From the IMG/VR virus record IMGVR_UViG_3300012953_000014, positions 64,001 through 128,000 of that record: a DNA stretch of 64,000 bases; one strand, written 5' to 3'. Below the pieces are notes generated by a model. It was not told the DNA's origin. It saw nothing but the letters and a program-made list of their open reading frames with translations, and did not search any database. Position 1 is the stretch's first letter, and each line of letters begins with the position of its first letter. Position numbers and translations under genes: made by a program. The stretch comes from a virus. Positions 40 to 54,100 of the stretch are shown piece by piece.

Positions 40-927
40 TTATCTGGGCAATTTTCCATGATTCCAAGGAAGCTCATCGTCCATGATAGTTCTTTCACGC
101 GGTTTTTTGACATCAACTGCCGTTTCGCGAATAACAACTTTTGGTGACTCTTGGTTTTTGTCTCCACCAACAAGATGACCAAGAACTTTTAACTGAAAAG
201 AGGTATGGTAGATTCGACTCTCCTCTGCAATCTCCGTTATGGTGTTGTTTTCTGTAAAATCTTGCTGAATAAACAACTCATACTGGTGTTTGTGCTTCTC
301 TATTACCTCATAGTTGATGCCATCTGTTTTTGTTAAAAATGGTTGGATTATTTCATTGATCTGTTGTTGATATTCAGTGCGAATATCGATTGTGTATGTT
401 ACATCAACATAAACTGGCATCGGAATTGAAATTATTTCATAAACTGGCTTGGGATCTAACTTTTTGCTTGGGAAGTTTATACCTTTTTGGCCCGAACCTA
501 CTGTTTTGTTGTCTTTTCTTGCCGAATATGAGTTTTTAAAGCCTGCTGTCTTGTCTTGCTGTATTCTTCTGGCGATTTCAATCGAACCACCCTTGAATTG
601 GTTGACTGGGTTAGCTGCTTTGGGATCTATGTTGCCGTAAAACATGCCTTTACGTGCAGGATCCTTTACCATACCATCACGTTTTAAAGTGATCATTGGA
701 AATATCAAAGCTCCATTGTCATCTCTCAGATCTTTGTTGCTTTTAACCTGATGCGCACGCTCTCCAGCTACCCACAAGACAGGAACTTTTTTAAATCCTT
801 TGTTTGTTGTGCAAAAGACATCCATTTCTTTGTTCAGCCAGTCGTATGTGGCAAAGTCTATTGTCTCAATTGTTGAAGGGGTAAACGGAAGAATCGTCCG
901 TATCTCGCCTTTATCATCATTCGCCAT
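40..927 (-). CDS. Tail terminator / sheath-stabilizer protein (T4 gp15-like)
   Basis: IPMPVYVDVTYTIDIRTEYQQQINEIIQPF resembles the gp15 PVPYxxxFELxIxT..DxxQIxEQILP segment; follows gp13/gp14-like genes; ATG at 927 after an AGAGGGG RBS. Confidence 0.65.
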   Translation of the reverse strand: MANDDKGEIRTILPFTPSTIETIDFATYDWLNKEMDVFCTTNKGFKKVPVLWVAGERAHQVKSNKDLRDDNGALIFPMITLKRDGMVKDPARKGMFYGNIDPKAANPVNQFKGGSIEIARRIQQDKTAGFKNSYSARKDNKTVGSGQKGINFPSKKLDPKPVYEIISIPMPVYVDVTYTIDIRTEYQQQINEIIQPFLTKTDGINYEVIEKHKHQYELFIQQDFTENNTITEIAEESRIYHTSFQLKVLGHLVGGDKNQESPKVVIRETAVDVKKPRERTIMDDELPWNHGKLPR

Positions 928-4695: not shown

Positions 4696-5877
4696 TTAAA
4701 TAATTCCAGCAAGCTTCTTCATTCTCGCGGCTGCGGAAGTGCCAGCTTGCGCTTCTTTTTTGTTAGATTTCAAAACAAGCCTGCTATTTTTGCTCACAGC
4801 CTCACTTAAGTTCTTAGGTGCTTCTTGCGCCTTAGAGGTAAGTGATTCTTGTAAAGTTTCAAAAATAACTTTAGCTTCTTCAGGTGAATTCGCGTTTGAA
4901 ACCGCTTCGACAAGTTTAAATTTTTGTCGCTCATTCAAGGAGGAGGATTCCAGAATACGATTCTGATATACCAACTTAGCGTTGGTTGTATTAAGTTCAG
5001 TTAGTTTTTCACTAACTTGACGGGCAAGACTTTTAAGCTCACTGTGCTCTGCTACAAGACTATTCTTTTCAGTCTTGAGAGATTTTACTTGCTCTTCTAA
5101 ATTTGCGATTTTTTTAACGGCTTCTTCAAATTCTTCGTTCTGCTCTTTCATTTCGGTATCTTCGTCAGCAGCTGCTGCAACTTCTACAGCTCGAACTTGT
5201 TCGCCTTCTGTTGGGTGCGTTGTTCCGATTGCACCTCTTGGTTGGTTTTTTAAATCAACAGTTAAGGCTTCGGTGTTTAAAATTTCTTCGATGGCAGCTT
5301 TGAGAGTTTCTTCGTCGAGTTCTAACTCTTCTTCAACTTTATCTTCTTTATCGTCATTCGCCATTGATTTTTCGATAGCGGCACCGCGCTTCTTTTCATA
5401 GCTAGACAACTTTCCGTCATCATCTAAGTCGGCTTTGTCAGGATTCTTGAGTTTTTCTTCAATGGTATCATCCTCATCTTCTGTTAAAAGGGACAATAAG
5501 TCTTCTTCTGTAGACTCAAACATCATTTCATCACCCATTGGCATTTCTTCTGCCTCATCAGACTGCGCTAGGGCAATCAGCTCTGGTAGATCGATCTCGA
5601 TCTCCTCTTCTTCATCTGGACATGGACATGCTTTTTCGCCATCCATCGCCTTCATTGGAAGTTCATCTACAATCTCGTCTCGATCGACAGATGCATCGGC
5701 GTCCATTGCCATTTCTTCACCAGCAAATGGATCGTCGTCTTGCTCTAAAAGAGCATCAACAGCCTCTTTAATTTCGCTCGAATATTTTGCGATGACTTCT
5801 TGTTCTGCATTTTTGATTGCAGCTTCTTTTAAATTTTGTGCGTCGATGACCGCCTGTTCTAACATTGATGATGACAT
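4696..5877 (-). CDS. Prohead core / scaffolding protein (gp22-like)
   Basis: Acidic coiled coil directly upstream of MCP; many [LI]xE sites; C-terminal RMKKLAGII. Confidence 0.8.
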   Translation of the reverse strand: MSSSMLEQAVIDAQNLKEAAIKNAEQEVIAKYSSEIKEAVDALLEQDDDPFAGEEMAMDADASVDRDEIVDELPMKAMDGEKACPCPDEEEEIEIDLPELIALAQSDEAEEMPMGDEMMFESTEEDLLSLLTEDEDDTIEEKLKNPDKADLDDDGKLSSYEKKRGAAIEKSMANDDKEDKVEEELELDEETLKAAIEEILNTEALTVDLKNQPRGAIGTTHPTEGEQVRAVEVAAAADEDTEMKEQNEEFEEAVKKIANLEEQVKSLKTEKNSLVAEHSELKSLARQVSEKLTELNTTNAKLVYQNRILESSSLNERQKFKLVEAVSNANSPEEAKVIFETLQESLTSKAQEAPKNLSEAVSKNSRLVLKSNKKEAQAGTSAAARMKKLAGII

Positions 5878-5908
5878 CATAATCTCCTAATAATAGTTTT
5901 TGTCCTAG

Positions 5909-6385: not shown

Positions 6386-6813
6386 TATCCTACTCCCGTG
6401 GATCCAGACCAGTTGTCCAATATTGAACTAGTGTGAATACCAGTTAAACCAGCGAGCACCTCAACATTGTCTGAAGATCCTGTTAAATATAATCTTGTTA
6501 ATTTAAGTTCTAATCGAGGGGTTTGACCATCGCGCAAACCTGGTGCTCCTGTATAGTTGTCATTGACTCTAAAATAGTTGTCATTTTTAAGACCAACTTC
6601 AGAGACTCCTACCTTAATTTGCTTAGAGTTATCGCTTGAATTTCCAAAGTTTTTAACAATAATCCACCTTGTAACATTTGGAAACTCAATAACTAATGGC
6701 GTATCATCTGGTTGGGATGACAAGTCAATACTGGCAGACACGAATGGAACACCAGATACTCGATAAGACCCAACATTTCCTAAGCCGGGTGAATTTGGAT
6801 CATATCCTGGCAC
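6385..6813 (-). CDS. Virion protein, paralog 2 of tandem triplet (GTG start at 6813)
   Basis: Homology to neighbours begins at VPGYDP; the GTG overlaps the upstream TAG (TAGTG); the ORF-track extension to 6903 overlaps paralog 1. Confidence 0.75.
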   Translation of the reverse strand: MPGYDPNSPGLGNVGSYRVSGVPFVSASIDLSSQPDDTPLVIEFPNVTRWIIVKNFGNSSDNSKQIKVGVSEVGLKNDNYFRVNDNYTGAPGLRDGQTPRLELKLTRLYLTGSSDNVEVLAGLTGIHTSSILDNWSGSTGVG

Positions 6814-7229
6814 TAACCAACTCCAAGTGACCCTGACCAGTTGTCGGGAATAGAGCTTGTTTGAATTCCTGTTAAACCTGCAATAACATCGCAGTTTGTG
6901 CAAGCCCCTGTAAGATATAGTCGCGCTGTTTTGAGTTCCAATCGCGCAGTCATAGTGTCGCCATAATCATTTGCATCTCTTGAGACTGTAAAGTAGTTAC
7001 TCCCATTCAATCCAAGATGTGAAAAAGATACTTTAACGTCACCATCTGATGTGGTATCATGATTTGTGACTGTAATCCATCTTGTTACATACGGAAACTC
7101 AATGACCAATGGTGTGTTATCTGGTTGTGACGATAAGTCAATACCGCCTGATGCGAACGGAACACCGGAAACTTGATATGATCCGACATTTCCTAATCCT
7201 GGTGGTCCGTAGTTAAATCTATTTGACAT
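6813..7229 (-). CDS. Virion protein, paralog 1 of tandem triplet
   Basis: PGLGNVGSYQVSGVPF..IDLSSQPDNTPLVIEFP..NWSGSLGVG; own motif box and GAGG RBS. Confidence 0.8.
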   Translation of the reverse strand: MSNRFNYGPPGLGNVGSYQVSGVPFASGGIDLSSQPDNTPLVIEFPYVTRWITVTNHDTTSDGDVKVSFSHLGLNGSNYFTVSRDANDYGDTMTARLELKTARLYLTGACTNCDVIAGLTGIQTSSIPDNWSGSLGVG

Positions 7230-18875: not shown

Positions 18876-21800
18876 TTAACAGTTCACATTTGCATAACCA
18901 TTTTTCTTTTCTATATTAATAACAGAATCAGCAGAGTCTTTTAGGCTATCTAAATGCGAAATAAGCATAACTGTTTTGAAAACTGATTTTACAATATCAA
19001 GAATTCTAGTAAAACCTTCCATCCTCTCTTCGTCTAAAGCAGTACCAGGTTCATCAAGAATGAATACTTGACTCCTGGGGATAGTAGAGACCGCTATGAA
19101 TGCTAATCGGATTGCCATTGCGGACACTGTCTTTTCAGCACCGCTGGCCATTTCCAATGGACTCGGATCCCTATTTGGGTGTTTTATATATATGTCCAAG
19201 CGATTATCCTCAGTTTCAAAAAACACTTCAAAGTCTACCACATTAGCAAGGACTTTTGAAATTTCAGAGTTGATTACTGGTAGGCTCTTTTTGATAATGT
19301 CATATGCGATTCCGTTTGGATGCATCGCCCTCATATAAAGATCGTAAGCCTCATATTCATTTTGAGCCTGTTCTTTATTTTCTTTTTGCTCTTTCAGGTT
19401 TTCAATCTTTTGCTCATAATATCCATGACTTTTATAAAGATCCAATAATATATCTTCACACTGTTCTAGATCTTTATTATTTTCTTCAAGTTCTTTTTGC
19501 TTGTCGTTTGTCTGTAAGATGATCTCATTAATGTTTTCGATCACCTCTTTGTTTTCTTCGTAAAGTTTTTCTTTTGCGACCAAATCTTTCAATTCAAGTT
19601 CTGCAATGGACTTTTTTGATTGAAGGTTTTCCAATATTAAGAAAGAGCCTTTAGAATCTAACTCTAACTGGTTTTTGATGCTCAAGAACTTTTCAAACTT
19701 ACTTAAGTTTTCTACCACACCTTCGATGCCTAGCTGGTCTGCTGAGCGTTGTAAGGCTGCTTTTGTATTCCCATCCTTAACTGTTGATAGCTGGACAAGG
19801 CTTACTTTGTCTTTTGCTTCATATGCCCCCTTGATAAACTTACAATGAGAATATTCCTGTCCACATGGCACTTCATCCAACAAACCAATCTGCTTATTTA
19901 AGCGATCGATTTGACTTTTATCATTTTTAATTTGCCTTGTTATTTCATCAATCTGTTCAGAGATATCAGAATGCTTTTGTTTTTTAGAAGTTAAAAGTTC
20001 AACATCAAAACTTTTCACAAATTTATTTGCTTTTTTTATTTTATCTGTGGTTTTTACGGTGTTTTCTTTCTCATTTGAGATTTCCTTTCCTAAAGTTGCA
20101 ATCTTGTTCTTGTGTTTTTCAATACCAAGCTTTACTTCAGATATGTTTATAATCTCTGTTGGGGCTGATTTTACTTTATCTTCAAGAGAAGCGATTGTAT
20201 CTTTTGTAGTTTCAATGTTCCCTTTTAATCTTTTGCATTGAGATTTTCTAGCTTCGGTGATGGCCTCGTTATTTAGTAGTTCTTTTTTAAGTTTTTTAAT
20301 CTCAACATCATGATCTACGTTGTCTAAATTTTTTATTGAAGCTTTCAGCTCGGCAGCATCATCTTTGGCGGTTTTGAACTTTTTATCAAGCAAGTCAAGA
20401 TCTAGGAACTTAGCTAGGATTTCTTTTCTCTTTGTTGAACCTTCGTTGATAAAAACTAAAGACCCTAGCTGAGATGACATTGAGGTTAAGAGGAAATCTT
20501 CAATGGTTCCAAAGTACTTAATAATATTTTTATCAGTATCTGATCTTGTCAGGCCATTTAGTGATTTAGATTCTTCAGTCACAACATCATAACAGGAAAA
20601 ATCTAAAAATGTTTTTGCCTCGACTGTCTCGTTTCCTTTTAGCTTCTTAAGGTATTTTTCTACCTTGCGATATATTGTGTATACTTTGTTGCCTCGGCGA
20701 ATCTTGACTCTTCCAGAACCAGCCTCTTTGTCATTGTTAACTATGTTCAAGTTCTTGCGAGAATTTTTTGAAATTGAGTTATAGATCGTAAACAAAAGTG
20801 AGTCGACAATGCTCGACTTACCGGAGAAGTTTTTGCCAAAAATACCAGTGATTCCAACATATTTTGTAAAATCCAAACGATTACTTTCACCATAATTAAA
20901 AAGGTTATCCCACTCAAGTTCAAGAATCTCATAGTTTGTGTTCCTGTAAGTCTCGTCATTTTGTTCAGCTATTTGGTTGTATTTTTTATTGAGATCTAAA
21001 ACTCGCTTATCAAGCTCATTTGATATCTTATAATCTTCCAAATACTCTCTAATGAGTTTTTCTTGAACTGCAATATCTCTTAAATCGTCTCTCCTAAAAT
21101 CATCTGATACTTCAACACCATCTGTGGAGATTGCGCGATTGATAACCGAAACTGACTCTGGCTTGAATCTTTTCTTAGCTACATCAACGGCTTTTTTTAG
21201 GGCAGTTGATGAAATACTATTCTCAACAACCAATCTAACACGGGCACCTTCAGGTACAGCTTTTGTGGGTAGCTTCCCACCCTTTGTCAAGTGAATTGAA
21301 ATAAATGGTTTGGAGCTTGTATATAAAAATGGTTCGCAAGTAAAGTCTTTTTTATTCTTTATATCCCAAAGCAAAAAACCTTTGTGTTCTGATTCACCAA
21401 AGTTCTGTTGAACCGTTGAGCCCGCATATCTAATGCGTCCGGCTTTATCGAGCTTTTGATTCTCTAAGTGAATGTCACCAAGCATTGCATAATCAAAATC
21501 TTTAAAGATTGACATGTCATTTTCGCCGTGTTCCATTTTCCAACCAATGTCTGTTGTACATCCTGTAATAGAACCATGATAGAGTGCAATATTTGTTCTC
21601 GATTTGCTCGCGGGTTTGGCCCAGTTATCAACGTCGAACACTGAAAGTACATTCAGGGCGAAATCCTTGTGGATGATTGTTTCCCCAGAATTTTTTAGAA
21701 GGTGTAGATTTTTGTGATCCAACGCATCAGCGATTGGAGTAATAGAATCTTGTCTGTTTCCATTTCTTAAGTTACCGTCATGATTTCCTAATATAACATA

Positions 21801-22019
21801 TGTCGGTGCAATATCCGCCAGGCTTGAAAGAAAGTTTGATGCCATTTCCACATACTCTGGTGAGATTTGTGTCTTTGTGTGGCATATATCTCCGCAATGA
21901 ATAATAAAATCTACCTTCTCTTTTTTAAGATCCGAATAGATTTTATTAAATATTTCTTTGTATTCTTTATGATATTTTAAGTTGCGGATATGGGTATCCG
22001 CAATGTGAGCAAACTTCAT
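18876..22019 (-). CDS. Fused SbcD(Mre11/gp47)-SbcC(Rad50/gp46) recombination nuclease
   Basis: Phosphoesterase HIADTH, HCGD, GNHD, LGDIH; Walker A GKNFSGKSS, coiled coil, ASGAEK signature, FILDEP, ISH. Confidence 0.92.
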   Translation of the reverse strand: MKFAHIADTHIRNLKYHKEYKEIFNKIYSDLKKEKVDFIIHCGDICHTKTQISPEYVEMASNFLSSLADIAPTYVILGNHDGNLRNGNRQDSITPIADALDHKNLHLLKNSGETIIHKDFALNVLSVFDVDNWAKPASKSRTNIALYHGSITGCTTDIGWKMEHGENDMSIFKDFDYAMLGDIHLENQKLDKAGRIRYAGSTVQQNFGESEHKGFLLWDIKNKKDFTCEPFLYTSSKPFISIHLTKGGKLPTKAVPEGARVRLVVENSISSTALKKAVDVAKKRFKPESVSVINRAISTDGVEVSDDFRRDDLRDIAVQEKLIREYLEDYKISNELDKRVLDLNKKYNQIAEQNDETYRNTNYEILELEWDNLFNYGESNRLDFTKYVGITGIFGKNFSGKSSIVDSLLFTIYNSISKNSRKNLNIVNNDKEAGSGRVKIRRGNKVYTIYRKVEKYLKKLKGNETVEAKTFLDFSCYDVVTEESKSLNGLTRSDTDKNIIKYFGTIEDFLLTSMSSQLGSLVFINEGSTKRKEILAKFLDLDLLDKKFKTAKDDAAELKASIKNLDNVDHDVEIKKLKKELLNNEAITEARKSQCKRLKGNIETTKDTIASLEDKVKSAPTEIINISEVKLGIEKHKNKIATLGKEISNEKENTVKTTDKIKKANKFVKSFDVELLTSKKQKHSDISEQIDEITRQIKNDKSQIDRLNKQIGLLDEVPCGQEYSHCKFIKGAYEAKDKVSLVQLSTVKDGNTKAALQRSADQLGIEGVVENLSKFEKFLSIKNQLELDSKGSFLILENLQSKKSIAELELKDLVAKEKLYEENKEVIENINEIILQTNDKQKELEENNKDLEQCEDILLDLYKSHGYYEQKIENLKEQKENKEQAQNEYEAYDLYMRAMHPNGIAYDIIKKSLPVINSEISKVLANVVDFEVFFETEDNRLDIYIKHPNRDPSPLEMASGAEKTVSAMAIRLAFIAVSTIPRSQVFILDEPGTALDEERMEGFTRILDIVKSVFKTVMLISHLDSLKDSADSVINIEKKNGYANVNC

Positions 22020-22027
22020 ATAATATG

Positions 22028-22056
22028 ATTATATTATATTATTGAACTAATGTCAA
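22028..22056 (-). promoter_or_regulatory. Consensus sigma70 promoter TTGACA-N17-TATAAT for SbcCD
   Basis: Minus strand TTGACA TTAGTTCAATAATATAA TATAAT CATATTAT ATG. Confidence 0.85.
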
Positions 22057-22064
22057 GGAGAAAA

Positions 22065-22445
22065 TTAAGTTCCGCGAGTGAATCTTTTTGGGTCTCTTTC
22101 TCGGGCTTTAGCCATAGATTTTAGAGAATCTTCATCGGAGACAGCGGGCTTGGGATCTTTGCGAGGATAAAGTTCCATCATCGCTTCGTTTTCAAGTCGC
22201 ATTACATCATCTCTGCTCAGGGGTGGAATCATGCCTTCATCGTCTTTTGCGCCGCCATCTGCAAGGATTCCACGCAAGCGGTCACGCATCTCCATAGGCA
22301 CAATTCTACCTTTTTCTTTCATCATGCTATGAACGCCCTTAAGCCACTCTTTAGCGCGATCATAATCTGGTGAAGCTTGTTCATTGACATGATTTTCTAG
22401 TTCTTCTTTAATAATTTGTTGTAGCTTATCTTTTGTTAGTTTCAT
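22065..22445 (-). CDS. Putative internal head protein with shared leader
   Basis: MKLTKDKLQQIIKEELENHVNE; AAGGA RBS. Confidence 0.7.
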   Translation of the reverse strand: MKLTKDKLQQIIKEELENHVNEQASPDYDRAKEWLKGVHSMMKEKGRIVPMEMRDRLRGILADGGAKDDEGMIPPLSRDDVMRLENEAMMELYPRKDPKPAVSDEDSLKSMAKARERDPKRFTRGT

Positions 22446-22466
22446 TTGTATTATCCTTTGTGTGTT

Positions 22467-22562
22467 TTAGCAACAACCTTTTTCGCATTGGCAGCAACCA
22501 CAACAACAACAACAGTGTTTACTATCAAACACTTTAATCAGTTTATGTAAAAAATTTTTCAC
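22467..22562 (-). CDS. 31-aa poly-cysteine peptide MKNFLHKLIKVFDSKHCCCCCGCCQCEKGCC (not in ORF track)
   Basis: GTG start after a GGGGTG RBS and a motif box at 22596; both TGT and TGC codons; TAA stop. Confidence 0.65.
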   Translation of the reverse strand: MKNFLHKLIKVFDSKHCCCCCGCCQCEKGCC

Positions 22563-22595
22563 TTCATCACCCCCGTTAAAATGATTGATTCTCCA

Positions 22596-22604
22596 ATAAA
22601 TAGT
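22596..22604 (-). promoter_or_regulatory. Putative late-promoter box ACTATTTAT
   Basis: Recurrent motif upstream of the poly-Cys ORF. Confidence 0.6.
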
Positions 22605-22631
22605 TCCAAGCACGAAGAAAAGTTTATATTA

Positions 22632-23384
22632 TTATTCTTTCACCCAAGTGGCGTACCACCCCTTCACATTTCTCCCTAAATGATCTAAGCTGGCTGGGGT
22701 CGCACTTTTAAAAATCAAATTGTCTATGCTGTCTATCCAAGGGCATACATTATCATGATTGATTTGGCAAATCAATTTCCCACCAGGTTTTAAAATTTCA
22801 TTAATTTTATACTTCTTAACAGCCGATTCAACACTAAAATGAAATCCAACAGCGGCCATAGAATATACTAAATCGACTTCTTCCAGTTTTGTTATCTCGT
22901 CAGTATCTAAATTAATGTTTTCATAGTTTTTAAGACCATAATAAGAAGAAAACAGATTCATCATCTTAAAGTCATTATAAGGTGATGGTTCAGCGTTTTT
23001 TTTATAACCTTGGCCTCCGGGGAAAACAGATCCGAACTCGGGTTTGGTTTTGGGATCAAAAAGTGTTCTATTAAAATCAGCTAAATAAAATTTTGTGTCT
23101 AGTAATTCATTTTTTAAATTCATGTTCACAAAGCAAGAAAAACGCCCACTACCACAACCTAAATCAACAATTTTTTTGGGTATAAAATTTTCATTACAAA
23201 TTTCTGAACTTATGCTTTCATAATCAATTATTGAAAATCTATCTAAAACTTCTTCCATAGTGTTTATTGACTTTGTCCAGGATTGCAATTGTAAACTTAT
23301 GTAATATTCAATTTCTTCTATTTGTTTCCAATACTCGTGGTCTTTGTCGTGAACAAAGTTGCTAAATGTTTTTAATTCTTTCAT
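22632..23384 (-). CDS. Class I SAM-dependent methyltransferase
   Basis: IVDLGCGSG motif I, VDLVYS, ILKPGG. Confidence 0.8.
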   Translation of the reverse strand: MKELKTFSNFVHDKDHEYWKQIEEIEYYISLQLQSWTKSINTMEEVLDRFSIIDYESISSEICNENFIPKKIVDLGCGSGRFSCFVNMNLKNELLDTKFYLADFNRTLFDPKTKPEFGSVFPGGQGYKKNAEPSPYNDFKMMNLFSSYYGLKNYENINLDTDEITKLEEVDLVYSMAAVGFHFSVESAVKKYKINEILKPGGKLICQINHDNVCPWIDSIDNLIFKSATPASLDHLGRNVKGWYATWVKE

Positions 23385-36379: not shown

Positions 36380-37476
36380 TAGCAATCCTCCAGATCTTCT
36401 TCTGTAACATCAGACTTATAATAATCTCTGTTACTGATCTTTTGTTGTTGTTCAAGGTCATCGCAACTTAACATTCTCGAAGAGAATATTCCTTGAGCTT
36501 TGTCAGCTGGTTTTAATCTGCACAATGTCTCTTGACCAATCTCGTGATCAACTTTGACATCAAAATAATATTCAACACAGTTTGGAGTTAGTTGTTGGGG
36601 CGTCATATTGTCAGGCTCATCTAATAAAATATTATCTTTTACTTCTTCTCTTTGTTTCATAAAATATAGCGGTATTAGATTCTCCTCTGTTGTGCCAGCA
36701 GTATTTGTGGAGTTGTCATCGACCTCAAACACTTCAATGTCAAAGTTTTCATTTTCAAAAGGAGTGTTCATTTCATCAATCTCTAAAACAATGAAGTCTT
36801 CAAAAATCCTTAAATAGTTTCCATCATTGAAGACTTCAGTGGTATAACTATCTGCAACTGGATTTTCTTGTGGAACTCCTTTTTGGACTTGGGACTTATA
36901 AGTTACTGGTGCCATCTCCAGTTGTGGTATATTAGTTATTTTTCCACCAGAATCAGTCTTATAGTGTTTAGAAGTAAGAATCCTTCCCTGCAATACATCA
37001 ACATTAAAGGCAGATTTTTTATTTGTTCCCAAAGCAGACCGACCTAGAGCGGAGTCTGCACCATGGATTTTCGCTGGGGTTGACTGAACAAAAGGATCAA
37101 TTTTTGTTACGTCTGGTGGCAGTTGTTGATCTGGGAATAGACTAGGAATCATATCACTCGGTTTATTAGTCGAGTGAGCTTGTACAACTTTGGTTATGTC
37201 AGTTTCTATACCACTAAAAACATATTGTGTTTCAAGGCGGAGATCCTCTTTTATCCTATCTTCGATTTCGTTTTGGGGTTCTGCTGGCCAAGAGTTTCCG
37301 TCGCGATCACCTGTTTCATCATTCTTATTTGGTGCGGCATATTTTCGATCATAAATCACATCATCATCAAAAAAAGCATAATGGGATGGACGGAAATCAC
37401 CCTTTGATAATAGGTGTTTGCCATATTGAGTTAGTTTAATATCAATAACTCTCTCTTTTTTGTTTAAAAACTTCAT
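36379..37476 (-). CDS. Baseplate/tail-associated structural protein
   Basis: N-terminal IDIKLTQYGKHLLSKG..YAFFDDDVIYD parallels the 27561..28502 protein. Confidence 0.65.
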   Translation of the reverse strand: MKFLNKKERVIDIKLTQYGKHLLSKGDFRPSHYAFFDDDVIYDRKYAAPNKNDETGDRDGNSWPAEPQNEIEDRIKEDLRLETQYVFSGIETDITKVVQAHSTNKPSDMIPSLFPDQQLPPDVTKIDPFVQSTPAKIHGADSALGRSALGTNKKSAFNVDVLQGRILTSKHYKTDSGGKITNIPQLEMAPVTYKSQVQKGVPQENPVADSYTTEVFNDGNYLRIFEDFIVLEIDEMNTPFENENFDIEVFEVDDNSTNTAGTTEENLIPLYFMKQREEVKDNILLDEPDNMTPQQLTPNCVEYYFDVKVDHEIGQETLCRLKPADKAQGIFSSRMLSCDDLEQQQKISNRDYYKSDVTEEDLEDC

Positions 37477-40400
37477 TGGGATTGTGTTTTAATTCCTTTT
37501 ATAGTTTTTTCGACAAACTCTGTTTCTGTCTCTACTTCTGCCAATTCTACCAAACTAAAGTAATCATACGGCCAGTTATAACTATATGGCAAATCAACAT
37601 TTCCAACGTTAAATCTGAAATCAAACTTTGAATCATCTGATGTGTCTGCTGTTAGTTTGTAGTAATCTACGTTGGCTTTTCTCTTTACTTTGAAGACCAT
37701 CCACCTTATGTTATTTGGCAACCTTTTGCCATGATAAAACTCATTTTCTCCAAGGCCATGTTCAAATATATTATTATCAATATTGCTGTCAGACATTTTA
37801 CCATTTTGTGATATTTTTGGCATTAGACCTTGCCAAATGTCTGCCAAATCTTGAGAATCAAGAGTGTGATTAAACTCAAATACATAAGCAACGAATGGAT
37901 TAACTTTCATGCCTTTTTTCGAGAAAGTTATAAAATCCAACTCTGGTGGCATTACATATTTATCTAAAGATTCCATCATGTTTGTTATTGAATCGCTTGG
38001 GATTTCTGGCGGCTCTGTTTGTGGTTCTAATCTGTTACTTTCTAACCACTTTAAGTAATAGTTAAAAGTCTCGTGATTGATTTTGAACAAGTTTTTATCA
38101 AGTATACTGGTTGTTTCTGCGAAACCTGATTTTGGACCGTATTGATGCTCAGTGAATGGTATTGCAACAATCGCTTCGGAGATTGTTTTTTCATCAGCTA
38201 TTTCTCCTACTTTCCTTGCTTTTGGTGATTCAAAACATTTTCTCAATAGCGAATCTTTTCCTTTTGGAAAGGTTCCTTTAAAAGTTTCTTCAATACCAAA
38301 TGAAATGCCATCAGATCCTGTTACCAATTTGCCATACCCGCTCCACATTCCTCGGCCAGAACCTTCTTCATATGGTTGATCAGCAAAGTTTAGAACAGGT
38401 GTTTCCATTCTTGATGAGATTACCCACCTATTTCTTGAAGAATCAGGGGCGTCGACCACCTCTAACAGATTCCCCTTTTCATCCAAACGAGTTTGTTTTT
38501 CTTGGAAAATACCAAAAGGATTAACGGATGCAGTTAATCTCATTTGACATGCCTCTGCCGGTGACAATCTTGGGCTTGACACTTGTGCATAAGCAATCTG
38601 GGAGCCGCTGTAATATAGAGAAACATCTGGGAACAACTCTTGACCAGGCTTGATTGACGAGGTTGTATTCCATTTTCCTTGACTTGTGTAGAATGTTTCA
38701 TAGTTTACACCATAAGAGTATTCAGTTGCCGATGCGGTCAAAGTTCCTGTGTTAGCGGTGTTTGTGTATTGATAAAGAACATCCCCATTACGTTCAAGCT
38801 TGATTCTTAAAAATCCACCATCTTGCAAAAGCCCTTTTGGAGACACGTAAGGATTGTCACCTTCAAACTCCCAGACAAAAAGTTGCCCATTGGCAGAGTG
38901 TTGAATCGCAAATTCCATATCGGTATAATCACTTGAGGCACCAGGACCTTGGTTAAGCCCAGCTATAACATCGGTTCGTGCTGCTGCTGTTCCAACAGAT
39001 GGAATATTCCATTCAAAAAACTGTCCGCCGCCGACAGAACTTGAAAGCTTATCTCTAGCTCCAACATTCCATGCGCCTGCATTGGCAGTCTTTATTAGGT
39101 TAAAATACCTATCTCGCCCACCAGGACCTTTAGAGCCACTGCATTCAAATGTGGCGTTAGAGTTTAACACATCCCAATCTACAAAGTTTGATCTTTTATG
39201 TGTCTTATCAAACATGCCAGTTAGTTGATCATTTTTATAATCTATAAATGATTTTTCAAAAACTTTTTGATAACTGAAGCCGCCTTTTTCATCATCGGCA
39301 TCTGCAACATAAGCAATAGTTAGACCTGACTTTCCATAAAAATATGGTGGCGTCCATGGGGCATATGCTGGATCTCCATTATTCTCAGGGAATGAAAAAT
39401 GAAAATAAGTATTTTGTGTATCCAAAAATGAAGTGCATCCAGCATTATAATACTCATCTCTGCCATCACCAAACTTGGCGGGGGGTCCAAAATATTGTCC
39501 GTTATAAGTAATCGGATCTGCATTTGATCTTGTTGCAAATGAATAGTGTTGTTTTCTATACACATCTGTGGATCCACTATTATTGAGAAAGTCATCAATC
39601 ATAACGACGTTATCATCTTTTTGCAGATAAACATCCATATAATAAGTTGTACCAGATACCAAACTCACTTCCTCTTGTCTTTTTGAACTAATAGATTTGA
39701 GTGAATTGTTTCTCAAAAAGAAGTTTGGTATTTCTGCAAAAAAGTTATTACTAGCCATCTTATACAGTCGATATTCTTCTGAGTTTTGGGCATTCTTGCG
39801 ATTTGTGGCTGCGATTTCTACATAAGGATGTCTTTTTATGTTACTTCCACCCCACTGATTATTATCCCAGCCATCAAAATAATAACTTGGATTTAACAAT
39901 GAAAGACTGCCACTTCCAGGTTTTGGATCTGCTTGAGGCGCTTTTGGTTGCAACTCTTCGTCTGTCGGAGCAGGAAAACCAACATCACCTAAAGGATCTA
40001 GTATGGATTCAAAAGGTATTCTAAAGTCTGCCAGTTGATCGATCACATAGTTATTAATAGCACCGGCAGTCGAGCTTCCAGAATATATATTAACTGAGCT
40101 AGAGTACGCTGCCCAATCAACAGCGATACCGGCTTTGATCGTGTTGTACATGATACCTGGTGCATAAAATGGTTGCAACATTGATTGAACAGCTAGGGCA
40201 CCAGAATGTTCGAATGACGCTTTAACACCTTCACCTTTTGTCCACCCAATACCATTAATAAATGGGCCGATAGATTGTGAAAACTGTGATGCTAACTGTA
40301 AACTTCTTTGTGCTGGGTAAAAGCCATTGTATGGCAATAGCTTCTTAACAGCGTTGCATTTTATAGTTACTTTGTTGAGAGCAAGATCTTCTGAAAAAGT

Positions 40401-43400
40401 TCCAAAGTATTTTTGGAAATCGCTGTTGGAATACTCTTTAAAAAACTCTTTATTAAATCCACGAGAACCATCAGATTGTGTAACATAATCTGCACTGGAG
40501 GTAATATTAGCTCCCTCTAGTGATAAAAATTTATCATTCTTTTTAAGGAAGTTCCCTTCAGAATAATATTTTATATGATCTGACATTTTAAATTCTGGAA
40601 CAATAGAATATGCTTTTGCCACACCCCTCATATCTGAAATATATTCTTCATAACTGTCAAACCATGGTTGTTTACCAGAATACTCTGATGCTTTCCAAGA
40701 TAAACGCCCAAAAGAAGAGGTGTTATTATTTAACATTTTAGAGCTTTTATGATAATAGTATGCCGAAGCTGTCGGATAATGTGAAGTTTGATATGCTATG
40801 GTGCCTGGTATTGCAGAACCAGAGGAGTTACCAACAAGACCTGCAAGCGTTTGATAGTTGGCAGAATTAAGTTCTCCAAAATCCGTGTAAGTATTAATAA
40901 CTTCATCAAGGAACGAACCATCACAAGCTTCATTTATAGATGCGGACAGAGATAAGGGCTTTTTCAAAGCTTCTTCAATCATTGAACATTCTATAAATGC
41001 TGCTGGTGTTTGACCAAGCCCATACAAGTTGGATGAAAAGCCATCATAAAAACCCTGTGAGTTTGGAAGAGTAGTTTGGAAGTTGTTTGGTGTTGCACCA
41101 GTCAACTGACAAACCTCTGCTGCATCCTGATTAGAGGAGGAACGAGCCACTTGGGTTGCTACTTCAAACTCTAATCTTCTGTTTCTGTTTTTAGCATTAG
41201 ACCGCCAGAAAGTACGTCTTGTCAAAATATCTCTATCGACACCGTTGTCTCCGTCAGAAACAGATGCTGAGTTGTTTTCTGTTACTGTTGCAGTTTCTGC
41301 ATAATACAATCTTGCTCTATTTTTGGCCAAGCCGGTAAAAATTTCTCTAGGATAAACAACTTCACGATAAGAAAAACTTTCAAGGTCAGCAGACTTTTGG
41401 AGACTACTTCTGTCATAAATATTTTTAAGTCTGTAATACGGCAAGTCCATTTGATTTTGAGACTCGTCAATAGCCAAAACCTCTTTAAACTTACTATTTG
41501 CAAAAGTTCCAATAACATTTCCAAAACTGTGCCTGAACGTTGTTGAGGCACCTAAAGAGCCGCTGGGTTGTACTGCGGTTTCAAGAGCGCGATATCTAAA
41601 ACTAACAGGTGGTTCCACCAAACTTGCTGTTAAGACATGTTTTTTTAAGTCAAAATTTGTCCTTGATTTAAACGGTTGTAAGAACTTAACGGTAGTTCCG
41701 ATTGTCTTAGTTCCGTCTCTAGTTTTCTTAGCTGGTATAACACGGCTAAATAAACCACCGTTGGCATATGCTGAAAGGATGTTGTTTACCTTTTGGTGTC
41801 TAGCTATCGGGTGTTGTCCAGCTCTGATTTGTTTCCATGAAGCTTGGCCCCAAGGACCATGGCGGTGAGTAATAATACCATTAAAAATAGCTGCACACGA
41901 ACTGCCACCGGCTTCATCGTCGGCACATGGGGCGGCTCCCAAGAAGTCTGTGTTCAAATAACTCTGGTTATTATTAGCAGCTGGAAAGCCCAGTGTTCTT
42001 GTTGATGCGGTTAGTGGTTCATAAATATTTGAATTTATTCCCACGAAATCATTTGGAAGGAAGTTGTTATAAGCACTATTAACTTCCACAGAACCAGAAT
42101 AATAACCATATTGGCGATAGCCATTTGATACATGGAATGCGGATCCGATTACGCTTTGAGAAATGAATGCAGGCATCGATGCACTAACTGAAGTTGAACC
42201 GGTTGGAACAGAAAAGTTTGTTACATACCCATATGTATCGAGATGCGAAGATGATATTGAAGCTGTTATCCAGGCATACTGATTCGCACTTCTTGGTATT
42301 GGGTGTTGAATATACCAGTTATCATAGTTAATCGTTCCACTCTTTGTACCTTCATAATCGTTATCATACTTTCTGCTTAGTGCGCCGATACGACGGGGGT
42401 TGCGATTCGTTTTGTGGTACGCTGCAATTGTATTATAGTTGTTTGCATTGGTTGTGTGTTGCGCCTCAGTAGTTCCATCACCGATTGTTCCAGTTGGGTC
42501 AATACCAAACTGACCGACATGCTCTATTTGCCATTCATGCAAAGCATTTCTCACAATCAAGTTTCTGTTATTCAAGCCATTATATACTGAAAATTCTTCT
42601 GCATATAAATCTAATGCGCCACGAGACATAGTGTCTATGCCACCGGGTGAGCTGAACCTTTGAACAACTATTGATTTGCCAGAACCAGTTAGGTCAAACC
42701 TTGGTAAAGAAAAATCTTTAGAACCAGAAATGTTAGTTGAAGAGGCTGTCGCGGGGGAAAAGCCTTCGTTCTTAGTGAAGAATCTGTTGTTCTGTGTTCT
42801 TCCAAAAGTCAACATGATTTCATAATCATTTTGATAGTTTCCGGCGTTGGCAGAAGAGGTTCCCCATTTAATATTCCTAATGTTTACTGGACGTTTTGCA
42901 TGTTCTTCTCTAAAATACTGTGCTCTTGGTTGAACGGCGGAACGAGCAGAAAAGTTTAAGAAAGGATCTCCTCCAAATGTAGCGTTCCATGCCTCTGCTC
43001 TTGTGAGCGTCGTATCCGTGGATGCGGTATTTATATTTGTATGTCTTACTTGGCGGCCACCGACATGCCTTTCGGTAAATGGACCCTGCATCGGGATTTC
43101 GCCTTTTTCATACGAATCATCATGATAGTTTGTGATTCTCGCATATTCAACGTGTTTAACAAAGGGTGCGGGCGTTGTTCCACTAATAAAACCTTGTTCA
43201 ACGTTGTTCTTAAACTCTGTTGCTGATGCGCTATAGAGACTGAATCTTGCCAACAAAGCACCCTTAGCTTCCACATAAGAGTCTGGGCCGTTTGTTTTGA
43301 CTTGGTTATTTTTCAAAGTAAAGTCAACTCTTGACTTTTTGTTTGGATCGGCCACGTCATGACAAATCGGGTGAAACTTAAGAGAGCCCGAACCGCCTGT

Positions 43401-46400
43401 TGAAAGTTTATTGTCAGTGTCAAAAACGGAGTTGAGGGCTGTTTGAAAATAGTCTACAACCTTTTCTCCGTCATAATTTGAACCACCCCGAATCGTTTTA
43501 TTATATTTTGTCTCAATAACAACTGGTGCGTTAAAAAATCTTCGATTAAATGCACTTAGAGTAGCAGAATGTATAAGTTGTCTATCTGTATCTACCGCTG
43601 CATCTCCCGATGAAATATAATCTTTTCTTTCTGCTTTGTGCTTCCACCAAAAACAATGTTTATTTTGAGATGGCGGTGACTCGGGTAGTGTGGGCGAACC
43701 TTCTTGGTACGGAAATTTTTGACGCCCAGCGCCCAAGAGTTGTGATTTAATGGTGTTACCTTTAAACTCAATCGTTGGATACTTTGTCCAATATTTATTC
43801 CTCTCCAAGACATGGCTCTCAACCATGGTCAAAAGATTTGTGGAAAAATCAGCAGATGCAGGGAACAACTGAACCAACATTTTTGAAATAGAGTTGTCGG
43901 CCCATTTATAATAGTCCACAAACTTGTCAAAATCAATTGTATCATTCTGGATTCTTGAAAAGTAAATCTCTCTTAGCTTTTCGAGTTGTTTATACTCCAT
44001 CCTATATCGGTTTACTGGTTCACCAATCAGGTTATTAAAATCTTTAATGGTAGAGAATACTTTAAGAATCTCATCTGATAAGATTGCATAAAGACTTTTT
44101 TCTGCTGCGAAAAAGAATGATATTGGTCGCGACTCTCTAGTGAATAAACTATCATCGTTTGAGCTAACAAGTTTAACCATATCATTGCTGTTCAAAACAT
44201 CTGGCTTTAGCTTTTTCGCAGTATTTACATACTCTCTACTGACAGAGCCCGTGTCTGATACCGGGAAGTTATATCCGCGACCTGGGTGTCTAATATCTGC
44301 AATCGGAGCTAACCAGCCATAGTTTAGTTGGCCGCTTGCGGAAGATAGTGTTGATGAGCCAGAGGTTGCATCTTCTACGAAAAACTGGCCGTCAGCATTT
44401 GAACCTGTTGTGGTATCAAATGTCCAATGAAGTGCAAGAGTTTCCATTTGGGGAATCTGTTTAACGTTTCTTGCAAAACCATTGGAGTCTGGTGCAGAAC
44501 CAGATTGAGAAGTGTAAGCATTCCTAAGTGGATTATCAACACCAAAACTTGAAGGATCGGTTGCGTGTGATTTTATTGTAGTATCAGACAAGTGATCAGC
44601 CCACACACGTAATGAGGAGATCTTAGCATCTGAGTGTTCTCTCAATGTTCCCGTAAAGTTTGTGCGGTGGGCACCGACAAAAAATCTTTTTGAGCCTGTC
44701 ATGAAGAATTTTGCAGAACCACTATCTAAAGTTCCGGTAACAGAAAAAGAGTTTTGAATAGTATCTTGAATGGCGTTGTAGCCAGTAAAGATAATGTCAT
44801 AGTTAGAACCACTAACACTTCCTGTAACAACGTCACTTCCACTAAGGGCATTAGCATAAGGGTAAGTGGTTGGTTTTATTCTAACATTTAAATTCCATCT
44901 AGTGTTGTCATAAACATGATTAAACAAACTACTGGTCAAAGTAGGTAATGGATACGGGGCAGTTCCTGTGAGTTGGAAAAACACGGAAGTTGAACCGGAC
45001 TCAGGGCGGATTGCCTGGACTTGAAAGTTTGATAAATCGGGGCCAAGTGCCGAATCTTCCCAGCCAAAATCATTTGGAGAGGCCACATCAACAGTGTGAG
45101 CGCCGAAAAGAGAACTTGTCAAGAAGTTTGTTTGATAATATTCTGTTGAACTTCTTTCAACTTTCTTGGGAAAAATAACTTCAGCTTGATATGTGTTACC
45201 ACGATAACGCATTTCTGATGATGAAGATACATAAGATCTGGTATTTGTTGCATCTCCGCTAGCTGTCTGTTGAACCACTGTTGATTCAACTTTATTTTCT
45301 GTACTAAAATTAGCGTATCTTTTTCTTATTATGGAAGACTCAAAGTTGTTCCTTATCAGGTGTGTTGTATTGTTTCCATAAAGATTTAACTTTATAAGAT
45401 TTTCATCAACACCATAACATCGAATCAAGTTTCTAAAAGACTGCTCTGTGCCTTTTGATTTCAGGATCAAAGGAAGGTTGTTATAGATATTTTGATATAC
45501 TCGGTTTTTTATCTCGTCAAGTTTAGTGGAGAAGTTTATTAAATCATCTCTCTTTCCAAACGCCTCAAGTGCGGTAGCATCAGAAAACAGTTCAGACATA
45601 TCTATTCCCATAGATTCAACCAGTCTATTTGTAAATGGGAATGGCTTAAAACTTCCACTAATATAGTCTGCATCTTTTAATCTTGGTAAAAAGTCTATTT
45701 GAAGCTGTAAAGTATCAAAATAACTGCCGATTATTTGTGTAAGTTTTAATAAAGTATCTCTATCGTTTTCAAGATCACCTTCTTGAATCCATCCTGGTAG
45801 GGTGTGAAAAATCGATGAGTTGTTTGTTCTATCATAAAATTCACCTTCTGCTTCCTTAACTTCCAAAGAGCTTGAAACCAGTGGGTGAGTAGAATATAAA
45901 ATTGGGTCTTTAAACTCTGTTAAAGATGCACTACTTTCAGTAATCGCAGAAGAAGTTGAACGAACACCAACTTGGTATCCTGTCCATTCACCATTGGAAA
46001 CTCTACCAGAATAATCCAATATGATTGCATCGGTTGTGTCTGTGCTAGAAGTGTTAAACACACCTTCATTAAATTTATAGTAAACACCTAAATCAACTGG
46101 GTTCCCTGGGCTGTATTTGTTTGAACCTGTTCCGACTGTGTTGTAGTCTGTATTGGTTCCGCCGCCGACTTGGGTAAACCAATATTTACCTATTTCATTT
46201 CCATCACGTTCTGTTTTCCAGAACCTAAGCTCATCAAGAGAAGCAGATAATGAGCCAGAGAACTGTGCGCCCGCTGTACCAGAAGCATGGGCAACTAGGG
46301 AACCGATCTGGCCAATCATTGATCCGGTTATCAGATTAATAGTTGAGCCCGTCAGAACTGTATTTTCTAAAGCTCCATTTCGATATAGTTTGCACTCCAT

Positions 46401-51123: not shown

Positions 51124-54100
51124 TTATTCTTCCTCCTCAGTGTCTACATTCTCTACATAGGCGCTAGTATCAATTGGTTCCAAATTACAATCATCTGCTC
51201 TAGTATAATCTCGGCCACCGGCTTCTTTTTGAGCACATCGTCGACTTTCAGCAACGTCACTATTACCTTGGTTTTCAATCCAATCGTAAACACCCAAAGA
51301 GAAGTCATATATCCAACCAAAAGGAACTGTTGGTGGAATCCATGTTGCTCCAAAAATTGCCATTGATATTGGAAGAACTGGAAGATCTGGGATTCTGATT
51401 GTTCTTTCGCACGAGTCTAACATGCCCGCATCTTCAAGGGCATTTTCCCCTTCACCAATTAAATTGTTTGCAGCTCTAATACCTGCATTTGCAGCGAACT
51501 GAATCTGTTTAGATATTGCAATATTAGGATCAAATGTTTCTGTTAATCCTTTTAGGATCATTGGTGGGAACTTAATGGCCAAAGACCACAAATCAACTCC
51601 AGGGGTTTTATTATCTCCATAGGTATCACTAAAATCTGATGTAGCTAAGACCTTGTTGGTCAACGGGTCGGCGTATTGATAGTTTCCACTATTAAGCATG
51701 GCATCAAAAATAATTCTTAACGATTCCTTAGTGTTGTTAAATGTTCTGGTTACGTCACCGTGTGATGCCAAGAATGTCTCTATAAACATAATATTTTGGG
51801 CGAACATTCGATCAACAGGGAACAAATATTTGAAAAACAACTTAAATTCATCAGTGTTTGTTAGAGAATCAATCAAAACTTGATTAACCTTTCTATCATG
51901 ATACATTCTTAATCTATATTTTTCTTCCTCGATGGCATTCAATCCCACTCCAACAAGTTCTGCCAGATTTGTGTCAGAACCAATTGGTTCTTCAACGGCG
52001 ACCACTGGAAATGTAACATATGATTTATCTATTGTTCTTATTGTTTCTTGATTGGTGTTTGCGTCATATTCAGTAACTGTTCCAACCTCATTCATAAGAT
52101 ATGCTTTGTCCCTTTTAATTCCTTCCACCACATTTATATCTCTTGATCTTGCACGGACTTTATTTAATAATGGAGAATCCTCAGATGGTGAGGCGACACA
52201 GGTCATTCTTAAACCGACATTAAGACTTTCAAATAAATCAGAAATCTTAATAACTTGCGACATAACTGTTGCTTCAGTTTGTGGAGTTATGAATACCAAA
52301 TTTTCACCACATTCGGCCTCTGTCATAACAGCTTGAATCAACCTTGGGTTTCCTGGGACATTAACATCAGCATTTATGAGTTGTTCATCTGAGGGTCCAA
52401 AGTTTGAGGTTAACCACTCAGCGAACTTATCAATATTTACAACTCCCGTCTCCGAGGTAGTCATATTATTTAAAATCGCGCTCACTTGATTATATAAGTT
52501 ACCTGAACTGTCTATCTCTTGCAGATCTCTTCTAAGGTTTTCTTGGGACTTATGTCTAACTTTAATATATTTTTCGTATATTACGTTTCCATTATCCATG
52601 AACCAAGTTAGAGGGCTTCCTTTTGGCTCACGCATTTTTCTTAGGCGGCCCATTTCATCAAGAACTTCTTGCCTCTTCCTTCTTCTTCCATCAAGATCTT
52701 TAGCGGACTCGTCTTTTACATATTGTGCAGCATCCTTGATTTTGCCTAAGAAATCAGTATAATCTTTAATCTCCCTATAATCTCTAAAATCTGGAGATAA
52801 CAAGTAAAAAGCTGCTAACTTTGACATCCACCAATCGATTTCCCACATCAAGTGATATGCATATAGATAAACAATTTCCGGAGTGCCCATTCTACTGTAA
52901 TCTGATGTACTGAATGTTGTGTTTCCATCCGTGTATCTTGGGCCATAATGCGCTTGAGTGCCATTGTTATCTCTCAACGATAACATTTCATCAAAAACTT
53001 CTCTAAATGTTTTATTATTGCTCCTCATGAAATCACGGACAATATTGTCACTAACTCCTGTTCTACCGCCTGCTGATTGGAGTCCATATTCGTGACTCTG
53101 CTGGCTTAAAACAGGGTGTCCTCTCTGAAAAGTCGGTCGCCTTGACCAGCCATCTGGTTCTGTTGTCCAGTTTCCGATGGTTGTTCTGTATTGAGTTCTT
53201 GCTGGCTGATAAGCACGATACGTATCATAAAGGCGTGGAATATAGTTTGGATTCGGGTTTTGAAGATTTTCTATTCTATTTTTTAACTGATCTAAAATAA
53301 ATGTTAGAGTTGCTGGTTTCCAGACTTTACCCAATCGTTGAACATGTTTTTGAATAGATGATTGAAGATTTGCTACGGTTGGAAGAGGACGATCATTCCA
53401 TTTGCTATTTAAAAAGTCTTTACCGATTTTATCCAATCTTTTTCTTTCAGAATATGATAAGGCCCAATGATGCTTGTTCGACCAAAATTGCCTCTTTATA
53501 TTTAAATATAACGCCTCATCGTCCCAAACATTCCATTTATCATAATACTCTATTTCCGCTTGTATGTCTTCAGGCAGAGAAGGTATTGTTCCCTCTTGCA
53601 TGTTATACTGCATCATTTTAGGGTGAAACATATCTTCCGCTAAATATTCAGGCTGCGGGAAGTTGAAGTTCTTAGCTTCAGGTAACGTGTCTTGTTCTAT
53701 AAGCCGATAAGTCCATGTCTTTCTTGGCATTCTGTGATATGGAAGTTCCATATTTTTTTTGTGCCCATAGTGAGCAGGCACTTGATTTTCTGGGACTCTT
53801 GGATTTCCATCTGTGTGATAGGGTTCACTGTAGGAGTCCTCATACCATGCATATTTTGGCCCATAAAAAGAATTTGGAGTATATGCCTTTTTAGCTGAAG
53901 GTAGTTCAACCAACCTGTACATAGGATACACATATGTCGATTGGCCTCTGGTTGCATTATAATTTATCCCAACAGGTGTGCTATATGAGGAGCCAGCGTT
54001 ACCTGGCATCAAAACATTTGGACAATTAAATATTTCGAACATCGTTAAAGCAGAACGATATTCATATTCAGAAATACCATCATACCATAAATTTTGATTG

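Follow-up and report, generated by a model that had tools for sequence, protein, structure and literature searches.

A 186-nt gap between two genes on the minus strand of an uncultured phage genome holds a 31-codon open reading frame (ORF), and 10 of the final 15 residues of its predicted product are Cys (32% Cys overall). The questions raised by this locus are whether such a short frame is a real gene, and what a peptide of this composition might do for the phage. The window, which means the whole stretch of 64,000 nucleotides analysed here, is part of a 156.6-kb IMG/VR virus record with an estimated completeness of 71%, a GC content of 38% and no tRNA genes. The record carries terminase, portal, and major-head genes. 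The terminase shares 45-46% identity with the terminases of Flavobacterium phage immuto and Microcystis phage Mel-JY01 and 31-35% with those of T4-like cyanophages, which indicates that the source is an uncultured and distantly T4-like marine myovirus.

The micro-ORF and its locus

The features of the locus are listed in Table 1. The original prediction of a 31-codon Cys-rich ORF was correct in its length and in the ten Cys among the last 15 residues; the start codon is GTG in the window, and not the ATG that its peptide had implied, while ATG is found at the equivalent position in the relatives. A longer ORF of 48 codons could be read from a GTG at 22613, and the extended frame showed no conservation. 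The first five Cys codons of the window are all TGT and form a (TGT)5 run; the other five are a mixture of TGT and TGC. No terminator-like site was found between the micro-ORF and the 126-aa gene, and the two are probably co-transcribed.

Table 1. Coordinates of the micro-ORF, its predicted signals, and its flanking genes in the window.
Feature	Position	Strand	Remarks
Micro-protein CDS	22467..22562	-	31 codons plus TAA stop (22467-22469); GTG start (22560-22562)
Putative His + Cys10 cluster region, codons 16-31	22470..22517	-	His, Cys x5, Gly, Cys x2, x, Cys, x, x, Gly, Cys x2
Predicted N-terminal basic amphipathic helix, codons 2-13	22524..22559	-	Conservation, hydrophobic moment, AF2
Shine-Dalgarno site GGGGGTGA	22567..22574	-	4 nt before micro-ORF start
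Promoter-like box AACTATTTA	22597..22605	-	34 nt before micro-ORF start
Downstream 126-aa gene, conserved N-terminal leader (MKLTK...IIKEE type)	22065..22445	-	Starts 21 nt after micro-ORF stop
Upstream 250-aa SAM-methyltransferase-like gene	22632..23384	-	Weak Pfam methyltransferase matches
Fused SbcD/SbcC-like gene, downstream of the 126-aa gene	18876..22019	-	1047 aa

Several other features of the window were observed. The 1047-aa protein has an SbcD/Mre11-type phosphoesterase N-terminus and an SbcC/Rad50-type ATPase, and this fusion is conserved in the relatives. A perfect sigma-70 consensus (TTGACA, 17 nt, TATAAT; 12/12) is located at 22028-22056 on the minus strand, between the 126-aa gene and the start of the SbcCD-like gene at 22019. 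Two giant ORFs of 3269 and 2533 aa (37473-47282 and 51124-58725, minus strand) are found in the structural region.

Conservation, anatomy and distribution of the family

Syntenic contigs were reached through homologues of the upstream methyltransferase (87, 80, and 59% identity) by exact-protein look-ups; searches with the single methyltransferase or the 126-aa protein as query gave no viral contigs. In the syntenic relatives, whose flanking methyltransferases are 59-87% identical, the micro-ORF is at the same place, and the frame, the ATG, the Shine-Dalgarno site and all ten Cys are kept. DNA alignment of these relatives showed that the Cys codons vary by TGT/TGC alone, and that the upstream box is conserved. 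The original prediction had named loss of the ORF or frame breaks in syntenic relatives as evidence against a gene; neither was seen in these contigs.

A degenerate DNA pattern for the His-Cys5-Gly-Cys2 core was searched in viral contigs and metagenomes, and it matched 87 viral contigs and at least 120 metagenome stretches. Nearly all of the AT-rich matches are ORFs of 31-51 codons that belong to one family, with 145 distinct complete peptides. The start codon is ATG in 76 of the 77 distinct viral loci. A site similar to the Shine-Dalgarno sequence precedes 74 of 77 distinct family loci, compared with 14% at random positions, which agrees with the ribosome-binding site proposed for the window. 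Across the relatives every Cys position is about 50:50 TGT and TGC, and all four Gly codons occur, with the residues unchanged. The Cys tract is therefore not a microsatellite, as the mixed codons of the window had been taken to suggest. The opposite-strand frames (poly-Thr and poly-Asn) change their residue at each TGT/TGC switch; conservation is thus confined to the Cys frame. For the 13 codons ahead of the core, pN/pS is 0.40, with pS saturated at 0.80. Moreover, the residues H6, L8, F12, C26, and C31 are at least 90% conserved, and none of them is demanded by the search pattern.

The invariance of the core among the family members is partly an ascertainment effect of the search pattern. 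Therefore, a second pattern was run that demands the helix end and only three Cys, which removes this bias only partly; 56 of its 60 matches are loci that already hold the full core. Among the other four, one is cut by a contig end and three vary at the Gly or at one Cys. The explanation that there is no gene at all, namely a chance ORF over a (TGT)n-like repeat or conservation caused by an opposite-strand gene, would suit the (TGT)5 run of the window and the failure of gene callers to call the micro-ORF in almost every case; however, its probability is negligible in view of the mixed codons with residues kept, the nearly universal ATG starts and Shine-Dalgarno sites, the residue changes in the antisense frames, and the 145 distinct intact ORFs, and the comparative data exclude chance ORF, microsatellite, and antisense gene alike. 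The micro-ORF is a genuine gene under purifying selection, which is widespread, unannotated, and accessory, and has a fixed Cys count. We infer that it is translated in vivo.

The number of Cys is exactly ten in 137 of the 145 members (94%), eleven in seven, and nine in one. The members share a core in the order His16, five Cys, Gly, two Cys, x, and Cys, which is followed by one of two alternative C-terminal endings (x-x-x-C-C or x-x-C-x-x-x-C). The helix residues 2-13 have a mean hydrophobic moment of 0.52 versus 0.28 for shuffles, in accordance with the amphipathic basic helix of the original prediction. AF2 placed a helix at residues 2-11 (mean pLDDT 71), and the model is confident for the helix alone; a complex prediction with four peptide copies and Zn scored 0.02, which speaks neither for nor against a complex. 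The hydrophilic face of the helix bears the conserved polar residues H6, N10, and N13. Phe is present at positions 4 and 12 (F12 in 72 of 76 members), and the Cys-rich half has no aromatics. A basic C-terminal tail with the RGRP core of an AT-hook was found in 11 distinct members, with weak matches to Pfam AT_hook (E 0.18). These tails point to DNA as a probable target in at least the tailed subgroup; the window's own peptide has no R-G-R-P tail.

Two loci differ from the usual arrangement. One viral locus (L042) has a tandem pair (matches at 639-665 and 779-805, minus strand), in which an intact member is accompanied by a truncated copy about 140 nt away that has lost the frame after the core; this suggests duplication followed by decay. 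A different open frame of about 150 codons in another viral contig (L043, about 6500-7000, minus strand) contains several His-Cys4/5-Gly-Cys2-like repeats; it could be related to the family by expansion, or be an unrelated protein with Cys repeats.

No match for the family was found in Pfam, PHROGs, or the PDB (76 members against Pfam-A with E up to 1; PDB profile search with E up to 10). A profile search of 1.84 billion representative proteins gave 8 matches, and a search of 5.8 billion proteins gave 9, none of which is named; gene callers almost always miss the micro-ORF. Full-text literature searches found no description of a phage peptide of this kind. Searches of the INPHARED phage genomes by tblastn with a 49-aa member and by blastn with the region returned no relatives, with the reservation that the low-complexity filter may mask the Cys run. 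Judged by terminase and primase, the closest relatives in culture are Flavobacterium phage immuto and Microcystis phage Mel-JY01; a (TGY)5 scan of these two and of a 484-kb uncultured phage gave two out-of-frame chance matches only. No member was thus found in the cultured phages searched, the closest ones included. Among 185,579 species genomes, two contigs contain true members, and the other 18 of the 20 matches are chance matches in GC-rich genomes. The two are MAG contigs from the Ca. Pelagibacter TMED166 and Halobacteriovorax bins; they are probably mis-binned phage DNA, and therefore no host is deduced from them. The protein-family and structure databases searched, like the literature searched, do not contain the family, which is widespread in marine viral and metagenome data.

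The occurrence of the micro-ORF among related phages is patchy. Among 44 viral loci that encode a related primase and extend far enough around it, only 2 have the micro-ORF nearby; eight of the loci without it have a 71-76% identical primase. The core pattern matches nowhere in five large relatives (48-83% complete); in one of these, the primase is followed directly by a leader-bearing gene and SbcCD. A relative with a 73% identical primase has neither the methyltransferase gene nor the micro-ORF. Close relatives are without the micro-ORF and its neighbours vary: it is dispensable and accessory.

The upstream box and the neighbouring genes

The upstream box ACTATTTA that had been noticed before the micro-ORF proved to be a recurrent and strand-specific motif. 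The sequence AACTAYTTA was counted 11 times in the window, in every case on the coding strand, compared with 1.95 expected copies; the whole record has 15 copies on the coding strand versus 1 on the other strand. In 26 of 76 distinct upstream regions, the 8-mer ACTAYTTA precedes the micro-ORF at a distance of 15-70 nt; for equivalent stretches elsewhere the figure is 1.1%. A part of these upstream copies overlaps the C-terminal coding sequence of the primase, and others are clearly intergenic. For other genes, the distance from the box end to the ATG is mostly 16-36 nt, and the 34 nt of the window's micro-ORF is within this range. The box is flanked by a T-rich stretch upstream and has no -35-like partner. 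It also precedes a scaffold-like gene (window 4699-5880), located immediately ahead of the major head gene, and a 438-aa gene that comes after it. Further box-preceded genes are one of 313-345 aa that is conserved among ten loci, those for small membrane proteins, and many small genes with leaders; PHROGs has no annotation for most of the box-preceded genes. The ACTAYTTA box is probably a phage-specific single-element promoter. A late-type promoter may reasonably be assumed, with the expression class taken from gene position only.

The micro-ORF is always co-directional with its neighbours, and in 57 of 70 co-directional cases the next start is within 30 nt of its stop or overlaps it. In the commonest setting the gene order is resolvase, primase, (methyltransferase), micro-ORF, small leader-bearing genes, and SbcCD. 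The window lineage has the methyltransferase, the micro-ORF and the 126-aa gene between primase and SbcCD, with the primase and a RuvC-like resolvase further upstream of the methyltransferase gene. Other genes directly before the micro-ORF encode NifU_N, Peptidase_M50, DnaE, tail-sheath, T4-type prohead protease, and thioredoxin-like proteins, and no gene family is constant as a neighbour among about 78 distinct contexts. A NifU_N/IscU gene is found within three genes in 3 distinct contexts only, which is not clearly above chance, and the Fe-S link was rejected. One locus (L078, 119-1180) has the micro-ORF between a thioredoxin-like gene and a PLP-dependent (cysteine-synthase-like, PALP) gene that starts 7 nt after its stop; this is the sole thiol-metabolism context among the 78 or so.

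The position directly upstream of a leader-bearing gene, which had been pointed out for the window, recurs across the family. The immediate downstream gene is leader-bearing in 26 of 63 contexts, and 63 of the 698 remaining ORFs of these loci bear a leader (OR 7.1); for ORFs of up to 150 aa the numbers are 23 of 45 versus 57 of 345 (OR 5.3); these counts were obtained from phylogenetically non-independent loci with a crude ORF caller. Three N-terminal leaders were recognized (MKLTK..L..IIKEE, MK.LLENWR.YL.E, and MPKF..QNKKR..PRYFLNE), each of which ends in hydrophobic-x-Glu. Examples are the 126-aa gene of the window and genes at 3944-4270 of L003, 1036-1470 of L009, and 4925-5764 of L138. The relatives encode a T4-type prohead protease (Peptidase_S77), and thus the leaders may be capsid-targeting or cleaved propeptides. 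The patchy distribution, the own promoter-like box and the frequent pairing with leader-bearing genes would mark a mobile accessory module.

A DnaE-type Pol III alpha is also phage-encoded (1133-aa frame; G000:C1:29363-30124, L134), and no DnaN-type clamp was found in the 71%-complete record. The L-x-N-L-F stretch of the peptide loosely resembles the sliding-clamp motif Q-L-x-L-F; the key Gln is replaced, so it is not claimed as a clamp-binding motif.

Possible roles of the peptide and comparison with known systems

The reading that we favour, at about even confidence, is a free micro-protein with an amphipathic helix and a Cys10/His2 metal-thiolate cluster, which would be metallothionein-like in chemistry only. 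It is preferred because selection acts on the peptide, the number of ligands is constant, some members have tails and the neighbours vary, and because of the textbook chemistry of Cys-rich peptides. The 31-residue free product would consist of two parts, a basic amphipathic helix (residues 2-13) and a 16-residue segment with ten Cys. The ten Cys and the conserved H6 and H16 would fold round a small metal-thiolate cluster, in which the twelve ligands would be enough for about 3-4 Zn(II)-type ions or a larger number of Cu(I); an Fe-S cluster might be possible too. The micro-gene would be driven by its own ACTAYTTA box and a strong Shine-Dalgarno site, with the next gene probably on the same transcript. 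The cluster may buffer or sequester metal during infection. Alternatively, it may serve as a structural core, so that the helix, and in some members also an AT-hook tail, could dock on DNA or another target.

Ten thiols and two imidazoles in a fixed count would fit a defined coordination cluster better than a generic Cys-rich stretch. Metallothionein domains use 9 Cys for 3 M(II) or 11 Cys for 4 M(II); the Neurospora Cu-thionein of about 25 residues is an example that a peptide of such size can hold a cluster. The composition of the peptide (31 aa, 10 Cys, and C-C, C-x-C, and C-x-x-C spacings) is that of a metallothionein; however, metallothioneins have few aromatics, and the peptide has Phe at 4 and 12. 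The conserved aromatics and the helix, which are not metallothionein features, count against the metal cluster. In addition, no member of the 76 matched the metallothionein models of Pfam (including PF00131 and PF02069), and no similarity to a metallothionein or zinc-finger family was found in Pfam-A (E up to 1) or in the PDB profile search (E up to 10). To our knowledge, no characterised metallothionein has its Cys packed as densely as in the run of five, and neighbouring thiols cannot all coordinate the same ion. The dispensability of the gene, the partial ascertainment effect in the core and an AF2 model that is confident for the helix alone also count against this reading. Against a free peptide, the excess of leader-bearing genes at the next downstream position could indicate a cis-regulatory role. 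By its composition and conservation, the peptide is a candidate metal binder.

The main rival to the metal-thiolate micro-protein, which we consider unlikely, is a cis-acting upstream ORF. Its ten Cys codons would report the level of charged tRNA-Cys and set the output of the next gene, often leader-bearing and possibly capsid-targeted, by stalling, occlusion of the ribosome-binding site or termination-reinitiation, and the peptide would be a by-product or have a second function. A precedent exists in mycobacteria, in which short polycysteine ORFs have been proven to act as attenuators that respond to cysteine (Canestrari et al., bioRxiv 10.1101/834739). The close or overlapping start of the next gene in 57 of the 70 co-directional cases would suit such coupling, although tight spacing is normal in phage genomes. 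The same applies to the enrichment of leader-bearing genes immediately downstream (OR 7; OR 5.3 for up to 150 aa), although these statistics come from non-independent loci and a crude ORF caller. In the minimum free energy (MFE) fold of the window locus, the UGU-rich Cys tract is base-paired to the ACA-rich spacer and to the Shine-Dalgarno site of the next gene; however, this fold is no better than those of shuffles (z -0.37), and an Rfam search of 21900-23000 gave nothing relevant. The spacers of the relatives are too different for a covariation comparison. The thioredoxin-like and cysteine-synthase-like neighbours of L078 would be suitable partners for a cysteine sensor, whereas the downstream genes in general belong to many unrelated families, with cysteine metabolism in 1 of about 78 contexts.

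Other observations on the peptide itself also argue against a sensor ORF. A gauge of tRNA-Cys needs neither the conserved H6, L8, F12, N10, N13, and core Gly nor a fixed count of ten Cys, and AT-hook tails would be useless in it. The mRNA is not leaderless, with a Shine-Dalgarno site 4 nt and a box 34 nt upstream. The cysteine-sensing leader peptide of the original prediction is thus unlikely as a sole role, in view of the purifying selection on non-Cys residues, the tails of DNA-binding type, the varied non-cysteine targets, and the lack of significant RNA structure. A secondary role through translational coupling is possible. We give a slim chance to a dual device of marine T4-like phages, in which a metal-cluster peptide (targeted to DNA in the AT-hook variants) is combined with Cys-codon translation that couples leader-bearing and probably capsid-loaded cargo to the cysteine or reduced sulfur of the host.

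The readings as redox or disulfide peptide, RiPP precursor or membrane anchor have less support than the cysteine-sensing upstream ORF. The thiols of a free peptide might serve redox or covalent chemistry, for example as a disulfide-based staple or switch, with oxidation in the virion or in seawater and reduction in the cytoplasm, or as a sacrificial sink for oxidants and electrophiles, which we regard as rather improbable. The composition fits this chemistry and the metal model equally; however, the fixed ten Cys and the two conserved His suit coordination chemistry better than a thiol sink. The box also precedes head-module genes (the scaffold-like gene and the 438-aa gene after the major head protein), and in some relatives the micro-ORF directly follows prohead protease genes (L046 and L098) or tail-sheath genes (L079 lineage), which would agree with expression late in infection or with a peptide associated with the virion. 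The box is nevertheless assigned to an expression class by gene position alone, and PHROGs is silent on most box-preceded genes. The peptide does not have the N-terminal leaders of its putative capsid-targeted neighbours, and nothing supports its presence in the virion.

It is very unlikely that the peptide is a RiPP precursor, with the helix as leader and the Cys segment as core, or a membrane-surface peptide held by its helix or by Cys lipidation. The conserved N-terminal segment and the Cys-rich part do resemble a leader/core layout, but the core of RiPPs is usually more variable than the leader, whereas here conservation is highest in the core. In the window lineage the gene directly upstream is SAM-methyltransferase-like, and in one other lineage it is a Peptidase_M50 gene; however, the methyltransferase is restricted to the former lineage, and across approximately 78 distinct contexts no neighbouring gene for a modifying enzyme is conserved. 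The helix is amphipathic and basic like the membrane-targeting helices of bacteria, although its conserved polar residues H6, N10, and N13 argue for a specific contact. The peptide has no signal peptide and no lipobox, and we know of no S-acylation machinery in bacteria. Nothing was found in favour of the membrane-associated acylated peptide that had been proposed.

The micro-ORF represents a widespread protein family of large uncultured ocean phages that gene callers nearly always miss, and a strand-specific promoter-like box that recurs across this phage group is documented here. If the peptide binds metal, it would be a phage-encoded metallothionein-like peptide, none of which was described in the literature searched. 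It would then be relevant to the viral handling of trace metals (Zn, Cu, and Fe), whether scarce or toxic, in infected marine cells. If the dual device is true, it would be a ribosome-based nutrient gauge in a virus.

Compared with the mycobacterial polycysteine ORFs, the phage micro-ORF also has consecutive Cys codons (five) in a short ORF directly upstream of a gene in the same orientation, which starts 21 nt downstream with no terminator between; a slowed ribosome could affect the downstream ribosome-binding site. The mycobacterial ORFs are leaderless, whereas the micro-ORF has a Shine-Dalgarno site (similar sites precede 74 of 77 family loci), a 5' UTR, and conserved non-Cys residues. In addition, the downstream genes in the phages are not those of cysteine metabolism (the PALP gene of L078 is the sole exception), and no supported structure that would sequester the ribosome-binding site was found. 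The promoter-like box resembles single-element phage promoters such as the T4 late promoter (TATAAATA) in that it is short, AT-rich, and strand-specific and has no conserved -35 partner; the phage box lies 16-36 nt before starts and recurs before head-module and small genes. The box differs in its sequence (ACTAYTTA), and it is known here as a sequence motif whose class was taken from gene positions.

Bridged Zn-thiolate clusters made from 6-9 close Cys are known in the Zn2Cys6 (Gal4 type) and the Zn3Cys9 CXC/pre-SET proteins, and the R-G-R-P flanked by Lys/Arg at the C-terminus of 11 members is similar to the HMGA-type AT-hook. These modules are eukaryotic and not homologous, and the window peptide is without an AT-hook tail. 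The metallothioneins, for example the Cu-thioneins of Neurospora and Agaricus (about 25 residues), the single alpha or beta domains of animal metallothioneins, and the bacterial SmtA/BmtA, differ from the peptide, which has no homology to them, contains an aromatic-bearing helix and a Cys5 run, and is encoded by a phage accessory gene with a phage-type box. They share with it the tiny size, the extreme Cys content, and the C-C, C-x-C, and C-x-x-C spacings; the fixed ten Cys and two His are comparable to the 9-11 Cys of one metallothionein domain, and similar cluster chemistry would be expected.
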